Source: Gemmatimonadota bacterium (GTDB lineage Bacteria; Gemmatimonadota; Gemmatimonadetes; Longimicrobiales; Gaopeijiaceae). Taken from it: DNA of 64,000 nucleotides. The notes under the pieces were generated by a model. The model did no database searches. It was not told where the DNA came from and worked only from the letters and a program-made list of their open reading frames with translations. A program made the translations under genes and the position numbers. Below, piece by piece: positions 19,081 to 25,110 of this stretch. The number at the start of each line of letters is the position of its first letter. Within the stretch, counting starts at the first letter, position 1. Where the stretch lies: NCBI GenBank assembly GCA_034521595.1, contig JAXHMG010000002.1:160001-224000 (forward strand), in the 5' to 3' direction.

Positions 19081-20169
19081 TCAACGAGTGAACCTCAGCC
19101 TGGCCGCGACCCCCTCGGCCTCGTCATCCAAGCGGTCGGCGCTCTCTTCGGCCAACTCTTCCACGGCGGCTCCCTGCTCGAAGGCGGTGCCTACGAAGTG
19201 GTCCGCGAGATCCGGATGCGCTTCCCGGAACGCCCGGGTGAGAAGCAGGGTCTCCACGCGCGCCCCCCGCAACGCGTCTTCGGTCGCCTCGATGCCGAGG
19301 GAGCCCTTGCCGCCCGAGCGTGCCTGGTCGAAGACCGCTTGTAGAAGCTCGCCCTGCCGCCGCGCGCTCACTTCCGAAGCAGCCCTCTCGACCACGGCGC
19401 GCACTTCGGCATCGCTCATCGCCAGATGCAGGGAGGGCTCGGTGCTCAGCCGGTCCGAGAGTCCGGCGAGTTGGTGCTCGACCGCCGATTCGGCTTCCTT
19501 GGTCCCCCCGAGCACGACGAAGCCATCCGATCCAGCGAGATCGCGGACCACCTCGATAAGCCGACCGTGAAGACGGGAGGCGCTCACCTCCAACGCCCGG
19601 TGAGCAGCGTCGGTGCCGGTTTCGCCGCGCGCCCCGGAATGCGTGGCGGCCCGCTTCGACATGCCGGCCTCCCCGTAGTCCCCGATATCCGCGTCCGCGA
19701 GCAGATCTGCTCGCTCCCGGAGCTCTCCGCCCCGGTACGTGAACACGCGGGCCTTCCGATTGTCGACGAGCGCGGCGACCACGGTGCGATCCTGCTTGAG
19801 CGCCCGCACGTAGGGAGCCGCGCGCAATCCCTTCTCCCATCGGACCAGGTGCGGCATCGGGACGGGGACCTCTTCCGCATAAGCCAACTCGTCGGGCGTG
19901 GCGAAGCCGACCCAACCCTTGGCCGGCAGGAACGCGCCGAACCGTCCAAGACGATCCTCGACCTGGGCGCGCGCCCGATCGAACGCTGCGACTTCCGCGG
20001 GTGCTTCGGCTTCGAGGCGCGCCCGCTCCTTCGCCAACCCCTGCTCGAGCTCCAGGGCCCACGCACGGCGCTCGGCCGGATCATGGCCGTCGCCGTCCAC
20101 GTACACGCTGAGCACGTTCTGGTCGCGGTGGGTTCTGTACAGGTCGATCAGTCGGTCCCGATTCAGCAT
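19081..20169 (-). CDS. Bacterial aeRF1-like (baeRF) protein lacking GGQ
   Basis: VLSVYVD N-domain, ALVDNRKARVF middle domain, L7Ae-like C-domain VETLLL...GVAARLRF. Confidence 0.8.
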   Translation of the reverse strand: MLNRDRLIDLYRTHRDQNVLSVYVDGDGHDPAERRAWALELEQGLAKERARLEAEAPAEVAAFDRARAQVEDRLGRFGAFLPAKGWVGFATPDELAYAEEVPVPMPHLVRWEKGLRAAPYVRALKQDRTVVAALVDNRKARVFTYRGGELRERADLLADADIGDYGEAGMSKRAATHSGARGETGTDAAHRALEVSASRLHGRLIEVVRDLAGSDGFVVLGGTKEAESAVEHQLAGLSDRLSTEPSLHLAMSDAEVRAVVERAASEVSARRQGELLQAVFDQARSGGKGSLGIEATEDALRGARVETLLLTRAFREAHPDLADHFVGTAFEQGAAVEELAEESADRLDDEAEGVAARLRFTR

Positions 20170-20530
20170 GAAGTCGTCTCCTCCGAATGGACGTGGCAGG
20201 GCGTGCGCGATCGAAGATCGCCACCCGCTACGCGGTCATTGCCGTCAAAAGTTGGTATCCCCCCGTGAACGTCATCGTTGCATCGCAGGAGCGGCTCCGG
20301 CTCCGAGCCCTGCTCCGCGGAGGTGCGCACGCGATGCGTCGAGCTTCCCTCCCGTGTCCATGGGGTCACGATACGGTTCGGGACCGCGCTGAACAACACG
20401 ACGGAGCCGCGGCCCAAAAGAGCCGGCCTCGACCGGACGCCGGAACGGCTCGGATGGCCGGACGTCAGCACCCGGTGGCGGGAACCCTGCCCGCCGGAGG
20501 CCTCACGACGGACGACACGTGCGACTCGAT

Positions 20531-20998
20531 TCAGCCCTCTTCGATGATGTCGGCGGTCCAGACCACCTCGACCGCACCTTCGAGACTCTTCGCCGTCGGA
20601 CACTTCGCGACATGGGTTTCAAGCGCTCGATCGACCTTGTCCCTGGGCGCGCCCGCCGGGAGCCGGAGGGTGTAGTGGACGTGAATCCGCGTCAGGACCA
20701 CGACCTTGTCGACCACTTCGTTCATGCCTTCGGCCCGAACCTGAATCGCATCGGGCTCCATCGGAATCCCGCGCACCTCCAGTGCGCCATTGAGGGTTCC
20801 GAGTAGTCACCCGGCCGCCGCCGCGACCAGGTAGTCGACCGGAAGCGGACGATCCGGCTCGTCGTCGAGCCCGTAGGCCGATTTGACCGGACCGTGCACG
20901 CCGAACTCGAGAGTCGTTCCATCGTGCAGCGTCGCACGCCGATGCACACCGGCGATCTTCTCGACCTTCGACCGTGACACGTATACGGGATCGCTCAT
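20531..20998 (-). CDS. OsmC-family probable selenoprotein (155 aa, UGA at codon 64)
   Basis: ORFs 20807..20998 and 20531..20776 are in one frame: PVDYLVAAAAG-U-LLGTLNGALEVRG...KCPTAKSL; AGGAG SD. Confidence 0.85.
20761..20802 (-). promoter_or_regulatory. Candidate bacterial SECIS element
   Basis: UCGGAA-CCC-ucaaug-GCGCAC-uggag-GUGCGC-GGG-a-UUCCGA begins 5 nt after the UGA; apical loop G at +27. Confidence 0.7.
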
Positions 20999-21072
20999 CG
21001 ATCATCTCCTCGAGCCGTGTTCGTGATGACTGCGGTGCCGCTCGAACGATAACAAAAGAAGCCGATGGGACT

Positions 21073-21102
21073 TAACAGCCCGTCGTAGCTCACGGGCGGC
21101 TA
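21073..21102. repeat. Short palindrome related to the ends of the 37523-37795 element
   Basis: TAACAGCCCGTCGTAG matches the left end 14/16; CACGGGCGGCTA matches the right end 11/12. Confidence 0.6.
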
Positions 21103-21306
21103 TGCATCCCGGTCCGCCTCCGGCTCGTAGCCCGAGCAACGCAGCACGGGGAGCGGGGGGTATTTGCTGAAGCGGTCGTCCGTGAGCGACCGTTCGCACA
21201 TGTAGAAGCGCGAGCCCCGTCGGTTCTCGACGACTCGCCGGTGGCGACACGACGCGCAAAGCCCCGCGAACGCCACGGCAGGGTCGGGCCCCGATGCCAC
21301 CGTCAC
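21100..21306 (-). CDS. Small four-Cys protein (putative metal-binding)
   Basis: GLCASCRH...FYMC...KYPPLPVLRC; GTGA overlap with pgeF. Confidence 0.7.
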   Translation of the reverse strand: MTVASGPDPAVAFAGLCASCRHRRVVENRRGSRFYMCERSLTDDRFSKYPPLPVLRCSGYEPEADRDA

Positions 21307-22082
21307 TGGCGGATGCCTAGGAACGCGACCTGCCGGCCCGTGTCACCGCCACGGTGCGAGAAGAAGCGCCCGTCCCCGCACCGGGTGCAGTGTCCCGACA
21401 CGGAGATCTTGCCGGCGTCGATCCCCGCCGTCACTGCCCGGCGGGCGAGCACCAGCCGGAGGTCGACGGGCTCGGGCCCGGGTGGGACCGGGAGCCCGAG
21501 GGCCTCGAACACCTCTCCCCCGACCTCGTAGCAGGCCCCGCATATCGACGGCCCCATATGGACGTACAAGCCACCGCGACGCTCCTCGGGGAAGGCCCTG
21601 ATCCCTCGCTCCAACACGCCGGCCGCGGTCCCTCTCCAACCCGCGTGCAACAGCCCGACCTCGCGCTCCTCCGGCTCCACGAGGGAGACGGGCACGCAGT
21701 CGGCGACCGAGACGGCGAGCACCACGCCCGGCACCTTCGTGACGTGACCGTCGCAATCCGGCGGCAGAATCAAGCCGGGGCCGGTCTGCCGGTGGCGCCG
21801 GACCGTCGCGCCGTGCACCTGCTTCGCGTGGACGACCGATCGCGTGCCCAGGCGGCGACGGAACAGCCTCCACCGTTCCCGGGCACCGACGGCTTCCACG
21901 GCACCGCCGAACAAGCGGAGGTCGAATTGCCCGTCTCCCGCCTCGCTTCCCCGCGTCGTCGTCCCCTGTAGCAACCACGGAAACGCCCGCGACCAAGCCG
22001 CGTGCGTCACCGCCGGAACCTCGTCCCACGGCTCCTCGTACACCACGGATACGTCGGGCCACTCCGTTGTCTCGGTGCCCAC
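21303..22082 (-). CDS. pgeF: YfiH/PgeF laccase-domain protein
   Basis: QVHG, ADCVP, HAGWRG, GPSICGACYEVG, CTRC..FFSHR; GGAGG SD before GTG 22082. Confidence 0.9.
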   Translation of the reverse strand: MGTETTEWPDVSVVYEEPWDEVPAVTHAAWSRAFPWLLQGTTTRGSEAGDGQFDLRLFGGAVEAVGARERWRLFRRRLGTRSVVHAKQVHGATVRRHRQTGPGLILPPDCDGHVTKVPGVVLAVSVADCVPVSLVEPEEREVGLLHAGWRGTAAGVLERGIRAFPEERRGGLYVHMGPSICGACYEVGGEVFEALGLPVPPGPEPVDLRLVLARRAVTAGIDAGKISVSGHCTRCGDGRFFSHRGGDTGRQVAFLGIRQ

Positions 22083-22236
22083 GAAAGGGAACCTCCATCG
22101 GTATCGAAGTCGGTCGATCCCCAGAAAGTAACGAGCCTCGCCGAAATTCACCCTCCAACAGGCGGACCGATTGCGGTACCTTTGTCGGATACTTCGAAGC
22201 TCTGCTTTTCGTTGACGGCTCATCGGCCGCACCAGG

Positions 22237-25110
22237 ATGATGGACGACACGCTTTTCGACAGTTTCAACGCCGCGTACGCGCAGGCGATGTACGAGCAGT
22301 TCGCCCGCAACCCCGACGCCGTCCCGGCCGAGTGGCGCCGGCTCTTCGCCGACGGGGGGTCCCAGGCGATCGCCGAGGGACTCTTCCTTCCCGACCAGCT
22401 GAACGGACACCGCGCTGCCCCGCCCGAGGCGAGCACCGTGCCGGCGCCGACGGCCCCGGAAGAGGAGATCTCGGACGAGTCGGCCGAGATGCTACGGCGG
22501 TCCCTGCCCGCGATCTCCCGTGCGACCGCCCTCGTGCAAGCGTTCCGTGACCACGGACACCAACTCGCTCGAATCGACCCGTTGGGGACCGAACCGCCCG
22601 GACACCCACAACTCTCTCCGGCGTTCTTCGGCACCTCCATGGAGGAGCTCGCGGAGGTTCCCGCCTCCTTCATCCTGGACAACCTGGAGAATGCCGGAGA
22701 GGGTGCGTCCGTGGCCGACGCCCTCCAGCAGCTGAGCGAGATCTACGCGGGCAGCATCGGGTACGAGTTCGAGCATCTCGACGACCACAAGAAGGTTTCG
22801 TGGCTGTGGACTCAGGTCGAAGGCGGCACACATACGCCTTCCCTCTCCGCGCAGGAAAAGAAGGAGCTCCTTCGGCGCCTGACCCAAGTCGAGGGTCTCG
22901 AGCAGTTCATACACAAAGCCTACCTCGGCCAGAAGCGGTTCTCCCTGGAAGGCAACGACACGCTCATTCCCATGCTGGACCTCGCGATCCACATGTCTGC
23001 TCGCGGAGGCGGGAGCGAAGTCGTCATCGGCGCGGCGCACCGGGGACGATTGAATGTCCTGACCCACACGGTCGGCGTGTCGTACGGCGAGCTTCTGGCG
23101 GAGTTCGAAGGCCCGTCATACAAGGGCGGGCAACTCGACATCGGTGGAACCGGGGACGTCAAGTACCACCACGGCGGACGCGGCAAGCGGGTGTTCAGCC
23201 AGGGGGAGTCCATCGACGTGTCGCTAGCGCCCAATCCCAGCCACCTGGAGTTCGTGAACCCGGTGGTGATGGGCATGGCGCGCGCCCGCCAACTCGACGG
23301 CCCTTCAAAGAGCCTGAAGCCGGACACACAGAGCGTACTTCCTATTCTGATGCACGGCGACGCCGCATTCGCGGCGGAAGGCGTGGTCGCGGAAACGCTC
23401 AACATGGCCCGGCTCGAAGGCTACAACGTCGGCGGAACGATCCACGTCATCGTCAACAACCAGGTCGGATTCACGACGGACCCGAAAGACGGCCGGTCGA
23501 CGCACTACGCGAGCGATCTCGCGAAGGGCTACGGAATCCCCGTGGTGCACGTGAACGCCGACGACCCGGAAGCTTGCCTCGCTGCCATGCGCCTGGCGAT
23601 GGCCTACCGGAGCGAGTTCGGGGACGACTTCGTGATCGACCTGCTCGGCTACCGCAGATACGGGCACAACGAGGGGGACGAGCCGGCCTACACACAGCCG
23701 ATCCTGTACCGTAAGATCGCCGAGCACCCGACCGTCCGCGCGTTGTACACCGAGCGCCTCGTGGGTGAGGACGTGTTGACGGAGGACGACGCTTCGGCCT
23801 ACCAGGACGAGGTTTCCGAGGTACTCAGAACCGCCCAAGACCACGTACGGGAGGAGCTCGCGTCCGGAAACGGGGCCGAGGGCGAGCCCGAGATCGAGCC
23901 GGACGACCCCCATCCGGAAGTCGAGCCCGAGAGCACGGCCGTGGCTTTCGACGTGCTGGCGCACATCAACGAGACCAGCCTCACGGTTCCCGAGGGGTTC
24001 AAGCCGCACGACAAGCTCTGGCGGCAGCTCTCCCGCCGGGCCAAGGACTTCTCGCCCGAGCGGTCCCTCGATTGGGGACATGCCGAGTCACTGGCCTTCG
24101 GGAGCCTGTTGATCGACGAGATTCCGGTGCGTCTCACCGGCCAGGATGCGGAGCGCGGCACATTCAGCCATCGGCACCTCGTGCTCCATGACTCCGAGAC
24201 CGGTCAGGAGATCCTCCCGCTCCAAGCAGTGGCGGACGCGCGACTGGAGGTCTTCAACTCGCCGCTCACCGAGACCGCGGTCATCGGCTTCGAGTACGGC
24301 TACTCGGTCGGAGCGGACGAGGACGTGGTGCTCTGGGAGGCGCAGTTCGGCGATTTCGTGAATGTCGCGCAGGTGATGATCGATCAGTTCCTGTCCTCGG
24401 GCCTGACCAAGTGGGGGCAGCACTCGCGTCTCATGCTGCTCTTGCCCCACGGACACGAGGGTCAGGGGCCGGAGCACTCCAGCGCGCGACTCGAACGCTT
24501 CCTTCAGCTCTGCGCCGAAGGGAACATGCGGGTCACCTACCCGACGACGCCGGCCCAGTATTTCCACATGCTGCGCCGTCAGGCGTTCCGTCGCCCCGAG
24601 CGGCCGATGATCGTGATGACGCCGAAGAGCCTTCTCCGCCACCCGATGGCGACGTCGACGGTGCAGGACCTGACGGAAGGAGGGTTCCAGCCCGTGCTCC
24701 GGGACCCGAACGAACCCGACCCGGACAAGGTCACGCGGCTCGTGCTCTGCACGGGTAAGATCTACTACGACATCGCGGGGCACGATCGCAGGTCCGAAGC
24801 AGAGGAAGTCGCGATCGCGCGGATGGAGCTCCTCTATCCGTTCCCGGCCGAAGCGCTGGAAGCGCTCCTGGGCTCGTATCCCAACCTCCGTGAGGTCGTG
24901 TGGACCCAGGAAGAGCCGCGGAACATGGGGGCCCTCACCTACGTGGGCCCGCGGCTTCGCCCGGTGGTGCCGCGAGAGGTCGCACTCTCGTATACGGCGC
25001 GGCCCGAGCGCGCGAGCCCCGCCGAAGGGAAGAGCCGAGACCACGTCAAGCAGCAGAATCGACTCGTGCTGGAGGCGCTGGGGCTGGAAGGAGCTTCGGA
25101 AGAGAGCTAG
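22237..25110 (+). CDS. sucA: 2-oxoglutarate dehydrogenase E1
   Basis: GQKRFSLEG, GDVKYHHG, NPSHLE, HGDAAF, WEAQFGDF, GQGPEHSSARLERFLQ. Confidence 0.97.
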   Translation: MMDDTLFDSFNAAYAQAMYEQFARNPDAVPAEWRRLFADGGSQAIAEGLFLPDQLNGHRAAPPEASTVPAPTAPEEEISDESAEMLRRSLPAISRATALVQAFRDHGHQLARIDPLGTEPPGHPQLSPAFFGTSMEELAEVPASFILDNLENAGEGASVADALQQLSEIYAGSIGYEFEHLDDHKKVSWLWTQVEGGTHTPSLSAQEKKELLRRLTQVEGLEQFIHKAYLGQKRFSLEGNDTLIPMLDLAIHMSARGGGSEVVIGAAHRGRLNVLTHTVGVSYGELLAEFEGPSYKGGQLDIGGTGDVKYHHGGRGKRVFSQGESIDVSLAPNPSHLEFVNPVVMGMARARQLDGPSKSLKPDTQSVLPILMHGDAAFAAEGVVAETLNMARLEGYNVGGTIHVIVNNQVGFTTDPKDGRSTHYASDLAKGYGIPVVHVNADDPEACLAAMRLAMAYRSEFGDDFVIDLLGYRRYGHNEGDEPAYTQPILYRKIAEHPTVRALYTERLVGEDVLTEDDASAYQDEVSEVLRTAQDHVREELASGNGAEGEPEIEPDDPHPEVEPESTAVAFDVLAHINETSLTVPEGFKPHDKLWRQLSRRAKDFSPERSLDWGHAESLAFGSLLIDEIPVRLTGQDAERGTFSHRHLVLHDSETGQEILPLQAVADARLEVFNSPLTETAVIGFEYGYSVGADEDVVLWEAQFGDFVNVAQVMIDQFLSSGLTKWGQHSRLMLLLPHGHEGQGPEHSSARLERFLQLCAEGNMRVTYPTTPAQYFHMLRRQAFRRPERPMIVMTPKSLLRHPMATSTVQDLTEGGFQPVLRDPNEPDPDKVTRLVLCTGKIYYDIAGHDRRSEAEEVAIARMELLYPFPAEALEALLGSYPNLREVVWTQEEPRNMGALTYVGPRLRPVVPREVALSYTARPERASPAEGKSRDHVKQQNRLVLEALGLEGASEES

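Follow-up and report, generated by a model that had tools for sequence, protein, structure and literature searches.

Gene organization and reading frame

The window analysed here, a stretch of 64,000 nucleotides from a Gemmatimonadota genome (assembly GCA_034521595.1, contig JAXHMG010000002.1, positions 160,001 to 224,000), carries on its minus strand a gene (20998..20531) that is predicted, with a probability of about 0.93, to encode a genuine selenoprotein of the OsmC family. The prediction draws on an in-frame UGA that is conserved among relatives, an adjacent hairpin under selection, a complete selenocysteine (Sec) system in the genome, an OsmC fold and a second conserved cysteine.

The gene consists of a single frame of 155 codons and a terminal TGA (20533-20531). 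It opens with the ATG at 20998-20996 and is interrupted in frame by the TGA at 20809-20807. Under translation table 11 the frame is split into an open reading frame (ORF) of 63 residues (20998..20807) and another of 81 residues that starts from the GTG at 20776. The original prediction, made from the letters of the window, had joined two short ORFs into one TGA-interrupted frame; the coordinates are correct and reading through yields the 155-residue product, encoded on the minus strand, which had been left unstated. The read-through translation runs ...DYLVAAAAG-U-LLGTL...KCPTAKSL..., in extended form ...PLPVDYLVAAAAG-U64-LLGTLNGALEVRG...HVAK-C133-PTAKSL..., and the predicted peptide across residue 64 is ...VAAAAG-U-LLGTLNGALEVR. 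In the alignment, the in-frame UGA (20807..20809, minus strand; residue 64) lines up with the peroxidatic Cys, the first of the two conserved ones in OsmC proteins. The second Cys, residue 133, is encoded by the TGT at 20600..20602 (minus strand) and belongs to an invariant C-P motif, in which it is the presumed resolving Cys. It is present in all 34 aligned rows, so that the earlier remark that this residue is retained (KCPTAKSL) extends to the whole alignment.

Conservation of the in-frame TGA

Codon 64 was compared in 148 orthologous or paralogous loci with a readable column, leaving out six matches that end short of it, one truncated segment (L171) and one frameshifted copy (L047). The codon is TGA in 143 loci and TGC in five. 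Orthologues are 56-89% identical over the whole 155 residues, across the TGA, and the motif VDY.VAA..[GA]-U-[LM]LGTLNGALE is conserved around it. A match was found in 37 of 61 relatives, where all 43 matches at E <= 5e-18 carry the TGA and the 10 stop-free matches are all weak (E >= 1.5e-9). Of 301 genomes sampled evenly across the phylum, 76 had a match (threshold E <= 1e-20), and among the matches listed 87 of 87 carry one TGA. Named records come from Gemmatimonadota (Longimicrobiales and Gemmatimonadaceae), Candidatus Eisenbacteria and a few Acidobacteriota. One unpublished genome (G056) contributes a single row (L046) to the alignments A1, A2 and A3, the counts and the tree, and another (G037) gives only weak stop-free matches; their removal changes nothing.

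Queries with Cys-form proteins were used to enrich for Cys genes, and gave 44 loci from genome contigs and 54 from metagenome contigs. Cys at the Sec column was found in eight database proteins (P0004-P0010 and P0015) and in the five TGC loci (L079, L122, L124, L125 and L148). The alignment of homologues that the original prediction had proposed as a check thus shows both Cys (TGC) and TGA at this column. In a quick maximum-likelihood tree of 133 distinct full-length rows, the Cys forms lie inside Sec clades and imply at least four changes of state. One Cys clade is placed within the Eisenbacteria-type sequences, L148 stands beside a Gemmatimonadota Sec form, and L122 groups with the paralogues described below. 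From this nesting we infer that Sec would be the ancestral state, subject to the uncertain rooting of the tree.

A nonsense-mutated pseudogene, or two small genes with translation ending at 20807, would account for the ORFs of 63 and 81 residues obtained with table 11, for the presence of only C-terminal pieces in the public databases, and for the one relative (L047, genome G033) with two TGA codons and a frameshift. Such an origin is nevertheless highly improbable. The same TGA recurs in 143 of 148 loci from at least three phyla while the protein is conserved on both flanks, and the covarying hairpin described in the next section would not persist in a pseudogene. A separate second gene would moreover need to start from the GTG of codon 75, within the long OsmC helix that spans residues 53-75 of the model, and would be devoid of the first active-site residue. 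In L047 (G033:C49) the frameshift is located near residue 117, and the locus is either a gene copy in decay or the product of faulty assembly.

A sequencing or assembly error that turned TGC or TGT into TGA is effectively refuted, and no point in its favour was found. Another 142 independent loci carry the identical codon, and contigs from three public runs (X1, X2 and X3, from two studies) have no alternative letter at 20807-20809; X1 and X2 possibly or probably derive from the source sample, and so give no independent evidence, and the coverage of X3 is confined to 20670-20889 and comes from divergent relatives. TGC, TGT or TGG in the reads had been named beforehand as an outcome that would speak against a selenoprotein, and only TGA letters were seen in these contigs.

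The genome contains a second OsmC-family selenoprotein gene outside the window (C2:120535-120999, minus strand, equivalent to L123:1536-2000, minus strand). Its 154-residue product has U65 at the same column, is 41% identical to the product of the window gene, and its gene ends in TGA. This paralogue is present in many relatives, with one TGA each, and the hairpin GCGCGC-UGGAG-GCGCGC was seen in L048-L050.

The hairpin downstream of the TGA

A hairpin resembling a selenocysteine insertion sequence (SECIS) is located within the coding sequence, 3' of the in-frame TGA. Its conserved upper part (20771..20787, minus strand; 17 nucleotides) is formed by a 6-bp stem, GCGCAC/GUGCGC, with arms at 20787-20782 and 20776-20771, and by the loop UGGAG (20781-20777). 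The hairpin begins 19 nucleotides beyond the UGA and runs over the codons that specify G-A-L-E-V-R. The G residues of the loop lie 27-28 nucleotides past the A of the UGA, and the UGA-to-loop distance is 25 nucleotides, inside the range of 16-37 nucleotides that we take to apply to the general bacterial SECIS model. An extended stem-loop (20761..20802, minus strand) encloses the upper hairpin through a lower stem, in which UCGGAA (20802-20797) pairs with UUCCGA (20766-20761). Folding of 20815..20740 with RNAfold gave -34.7 kcal/mol (z = -3.35), and one of 200 shuffled sequences was as stable.

Covariation was analysed in 129 distinct Sec segments of 75 nucleotides (alignment A3), and a version with 29 relatives was also run. 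All six pairs of the upper stem form in 127 of the 129 distinct Sec genes. Standard pairs occupy 99.4% of the cells of the six pairs, as compared with 4.8-66.8% when the 3' partner is slid by 1-3 columns. Three pairs show compensatory double changes, amounting to 41 doubly changed cells, and none of 500 shuffles matched the observed covariation. The types found at these pairs are A-U 87, G-C 33 and G-U 7; C-G 125 and U-A 2; and G-C 110, C-G 5 and G-U 13. The main covariation is a synonymous choice tied to an amino-acid change, with GCA (Ala) facing GUG (Val) in some genes and GCG (Ala) facing GCG (Ala) in others; the rare Ala codon GCA accounts for 63 of 88 cases and covaries with GTG (Val) on the opposite arm.

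Third-position entropy, measured on 90 distinct segments, is 1.86 bits at Gly+3 and 1.89 bits at Thr+4, outside the stem, and falls in the stem to 0.39 bits at Gly+7, 0.15 bits at Leu+9, 0.09 bits at Val/Ala+11 and 0.67 bits at Arg+12. By this measure the synonymous sites of the stem are nearly frozen. The loop starts with UGG in 127 of the 129 Sec genes and in none of the five Cys genes. In three of the Cys genes the GALEVR peptide is unchanged, but Leu is encoded by CUC, giving the loop UCGAG, and the stem is either weaker or disrupted. These Cys forms, which share the peptide but lack the UGG loop, constitute a built-in control. The alignments indicate that the upper hairpin is under selection as RNA, and that the recurrence of TGA and upper hairpin in 143 of 148 loci, with compensatory changes, is far beyond chance. 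The family offers a clean natural case in which a SECIS overlies the code for a conserved peptide and compensation takes place at the level of codons.

The stem-loop claimed in the original prediction included the lower stem. The upper hairpin and the distance to the loop G were borne out, and the element proved to be evolutionarily constrained, whereas the lower stem is lineage-specific: only members of the genus and near relatives retain it, with a switch from A-U to G-C. As it is not retained family-wide, the lower stem was rejected as a part of the conserved SECIS.

The arrangement is analogous to bacterial SECIS elements of the Escherichia coli fdhF type, in which a stem-loop within the coding sequence lies directly 3' of the UGA and exposes a G in its apical loop. 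It differs in the spacer of 19 nucleotides ahead of a 17-nucleotide minihelix, in having no evident bulged U, and in the absence of an Rfam match.

Selenocysteine machinery and genetic code

The genome assembly (3.49 Mb, 93% complete) was searched for the components of Sec synthesis and insertion, which the original prediction had expected to be encoded. All were found, with scores above the curated cut-offs: selA (542 bits), selB (313.5 bits, or 333.9 bits with a C-terminal piece), selD (375 bits) and one transfer RNA for Sec (tRNA-Sec) with the anticodon tca on contig C3, detected by ARAGORN and by Rfam RF01852 (68.9 bits). A scan of the 64-kb window itself with ARAGORN gave no tRNA. The selD gene, located outside the window (C3:3027242-3028168, minus strand), has an in-frame TGA within SHGAG-U-ACK, which we take to be the usual Sec/Cys site of SelD. 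The selenophosphate synthetase of this organism would thus itself be a selenoprotein.

Release factor 2 (RF2) is encoded in the genome (525 bits) and TGA ends 1684 of the 2386 ORFs of at least 400 codons; TGA is therefore the normal terminator in this genome. Also the gene under study terminates with TGA, at 20533-20531, where no such hairpin follows, as do 18 of the 29 relatives' genes that were read.

These data bear on the alternative that the UGA is read through without Sec, either by a reassigned code in which TGA specifies Trp or Gly, or by near-cognate suppression. Two database proteins, P0003 and P0002, do show W and G, respectively, at the Sec column, but these are probably TGA codons translated under code 4 or code 25 by automated gene callers, rather than true Trp or Gly forms. 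Given that TGA is the main terminator, that RF2 is present and that the gene itself ends in TGA, that the full Sec machinery and a Sec-type SelD are encoded, and that the natural alternative at the column is Cys and not Trp or Gly, this explanation carries very little probability.

In the proposed mechanism of synthesis, the UGA at 20809-20807 would be decoded as Sec by Sec-tRNA(Sec). SelB would bind the GCGCAC-UGGAG-GUGCGC hairpin, which lies in the codons for the conserved helix segment GALEVR, and deliver the charged tRNA to the ribosome.

Family assignment and structural model

The window protein belongs to the OsmC family and has the OsmC/Ohr fold. Residues 49-146 match Pfam OsmC (PF02566) with 53.7 bits (cut-off 27.5) and an E value of 2.9e-14. 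Thermus thermophilus OsmC (1UKK) is the sole solved structure found by sequence (E 8.4e-7), and both of its Cys are aligned with U64 and C133, the former at the Cys of 'ahagCf' and the latter at that of 'egCPv' in 1ukk_A. An AlphaFold2 model built from a 34-row alignment reached a predicted local distance difference test score of 95.8 and a predicted template modelling (TM) score of 0.87. With this model Foldseek retrieved OsmC/Ohr structures at a probability of 1.00 and TM scores of 0.68-0.78, including E. coli OsmC, OhrB and the Ohr C60S variant bound to dihydrolipoamide. The family assignment of the original prediction and its placement of the TGA at the first redox Cys, which is the first conserved Cys of 1UKK, are both consistent with these results.

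The protein shares its fold, its redox positions and a similar size with the two-Cys hydroperoxide reductases of the OsmC and Ohr families (E. coli OsmC 1QWI/1NYE, 1UKK, and Ohr/OhrB 6EB4 and 6EBG). It differs from them in having Sec as the first redox residue, in an identity of only 11-24% to the solved structures, and in an extra conserved N-terminal segment (Y6, R20 and GVHG at 33-36). The residues Y6, R20, G33, H35, D55, U/C64, G67, T68, G71, A72, L73, R76, G91, Y109, R124, H129, C133 and P134 are invariant in the family, and E74 is nearly so. The invariant R20 is situated in the N-terminal strand region, presumably where the catalytic Arg of OsmC/Ohr enzymes sits.

Comparison with described families

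The interpretation of the gene as a Sec-encoding OsmC gene has to be weighed against several observations that speak against it. The hairpin is not absolutely uniform, since two Gemmatimonadota Sec genes of the 129 (L093 and L094) have the loop UCGCC, L121 forms two of the six pairs and L109 five of six. The Cys forms L079 and L125 are still able to form a weakened stem, so conservation of the stem could partly reflect constraints from the peptide and from GC content. A scan of 20500-21050 against Rfam (E <= 10) returned no SECIS family, and the spacing between UGA and hairpin is longer, at 19 nucleotides, than the approximately 11 nucleotides that we assume for E. coli fdhF. At the level of the protein, the NCBIfam model NF041052 (OsmC_like_Se, 'OsmC-related (seleno)protein') scores the window protein at 35.7 bits against a cut-off of 95. 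The scores for TIGR03562 (OsmC; 21.3 bits, cut-off 85.8) and TIGR03563 (SACOL1771 peroxiredoxin subfamily; 21.4 bits, cut-off 166.15) are likewise below threshold, and no cut-off of a curated peroxiredoxin subfamily is reached.

Of the divergent hairpins, that of L121 was inspected by eye and shows a shifted stem-loop of its own (GCCGCCA...UGGCGGC); L093, L094 and L121 may represent variant SECIS solutions. The Rfam scan also returned a cow-rumen-1 match of 13.8 bits, which was set aside as chance.

The paralogue scores 17.4 bits with NF041052 and the Cys forms 23.8-26.8 bits, and neither the source genome nor any of 151 genomes from the phylum yielded a member above the cut-off. Membership of the window protein or of its paralogue in this family was rejected on score (35.7 and 17.4 against 95). 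NF041052 is here assumed to correspond to the published OsmC-like selenoprotein family with the motif UxxT. The curated model that rescues OsmC-like selenoproteins thus misses the clade of the window gene.

OsmC-like selenoproteins are in print, as the original prediction had stated. They were reported in 2005 from the Sargasso Sea, as three sequences of COG1765 with the motif UxxT and a SECIS shown (Zhang, Fomenko & Gladyshev; PMC1088965). This family is also listed, with the same motif, in reviews from 2022 (PMC9312934) and 2026 (PMC13188914), in neither of which the term 'Gemmatimonad' occurs. The window protein shares with the Sargasso Sea set the PF02566 domain, Sec in place of the first redox Cys, a downstream SECIS with a loop G, and Cys homologues. 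The two differ in the motif, which is UxxT in the 2005 set and U-[LM]-L-G-T (UxxGT, with Thr at +4) in the window clade, and in the hosts, which are marine sources in the former and Gemmatimonadota, Ca. Eisenbacteria and Acidobacteriota in the latter. A literature search combining selenoprotein with Gemmatimonad* retrieved, among the matches listed, no title that deals with the OsmC-Sec family of the window. The protein is consequently of a known kind, a Sec-for-Cys member of the OsmC superfamily, on a branch beyond the reach of the curated model. Existing knowledge of Sec decoding is left unchanged and specialists would not be surprised, although the evidence is unusually clean.

The closest database proteins, comprising all matches above 57% identity, are C-terminal fragments of 86-103 residues, some of them named 'OsmC family protein', in line with the earlier expectation that standard gene callers would split the gene. 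In many species an ATG codon directly follows the TGA and provides gene callers with a false start. The annotation error is systematic, and because the closest entries are such fragments, counts of selenoproteins in Gemmatimonadota and Eisenbacteria are too low.

Proposed function

The protein is probably a two-residue (Sec/Cys) hydroperoxide reductase, by analogy with the OsmC and Ohr families. The first Cys of these families, on the long helix, is taken to be peroxidatic and that of the C-P motif to be resolving. In the model of the reaction, U64, placed like the peroxidatic Cys of OsmC/Ohr proteins at the N-terminal end of the long helix, would attack the hydroperoxide and be converted to a selenenic acid. 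C133 of the invariant CP motif would resolve this intermediate to a selenenylsulfide, to be reduced in turn by a dithiol, for which a lipoylated protein or thioredoxin is a plausible candidate. The family would make a good test case for the kinetic advantage of Sec in peroxidases of the OsmC/Ohr type.

The curated peroxiredoxin subfamily cut-offs are all missed, and peroxidase activity is thus an extrapolation from the superfamily; no Ohr subfamily model is found among the NCBIfam matches of the window protein. In this respect a genuine selenoprotein with a different redox function has to be considered. It could act as a thiol-disulfide or a persulfide- or lipoyl-related oxidoreductase, or as a redox sensor, roles of the kind suspected for OsmC/YhfA-like branches that are uncharacterised. 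The wide margins by which the subfamily models are missed would fit such a role, as would the gene string described below (PgeF, a 68-residue Cys-rich ORF and OsmC-Sec), which is not a classical context of peroxide stress, and the family-specific invariant residues Y6, H35, D55 and H129, which could not be mapped to the known catalytic set of OsmC/Ohr. On the other hand, the protein has the fold of OsmC/Ohr and its two redox residues occupy the same positions, Sec at the peroxidatic position is the usual pattern of peroxidase selenoproteins, and R20 is invariant in the strand region presumed to hold the catalytic Arg. We regard a role other than hydroperoxide reduction as rather unlikely, although clearly less so than the alternatives to Sec insertion discussed above.

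Taken jointly, and at roughly even odds for the combination as a whole, the window gene would represent a distinct and uncurated clade of OsmC-superfamily selenoproteins with the motif UxxGT and two paralogous lineages per genome. Sec would be ancestral and almost exclusive in this clade (143 Sec to 5 Cys loci, with Cys nested in Sec clades), and the SECIS would be embedded in the codons of a conserved helix, where a Val/Ala change in one arm is compensated by a synonymous switch of Ala codon in the opposite arm. Together with PgeF and the 68-residue Cys-rich protein, the selenoprotein would form a selenium-dependent redox module that is characteristic of Gemmatimonadota and Eisenbacteria. The clade would be one that public annotations systematically truncate.

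Genomic context

A GGAG motif (21006..21009, minus strand) is located 7 nucleotides upstream of the ATG and may serve as the Shine-Dalgarno sequence of the selenoprotein gene. Upstream of it lies an ORF of 68 residues (21100..21306, minus strand) that is rich in Cys (C..C, C, C pattern) and that has no Pfam or NCBIfam match. This conserved ORF, a probable operon partner, was found by tblastn immediately ahead of OsmC-Sec in 34 of the 101 related loci searched. The first gene of the three-gene string (21303..22130, minus strand) is of the PgeF/YfiH type (Cu-oxidase_4, PF02578, E 4.9e-46), and is syntenic in 33 of the 101 loci, usually ahead of the 68-residue ORF. The three genes may form an operon.

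Directly downstream of the selenoprotein gene, a protein of 362 residues (19081-20169, minus strand) contains a baeRF_family10 domain (E 4.8e-11) and gives a sub-threshold match to the MSMEG_1130 family of ribosome hibernation factors (68.6 bits, cut-off 480). On the other side of the string, the gene for 2-oxoglutarate dehydrogenase E1 (sucA; 22237-25110, plus strand) is divergently oriented upstream of PgeF, an arrangement that can be recognised in 14 related loci even though their flanks are short. Lipoylated proteins serve as reductants for Ohr/OsmC enzymes, and the adjacent divergent sucA is a weak hint at lipoyl proteins.

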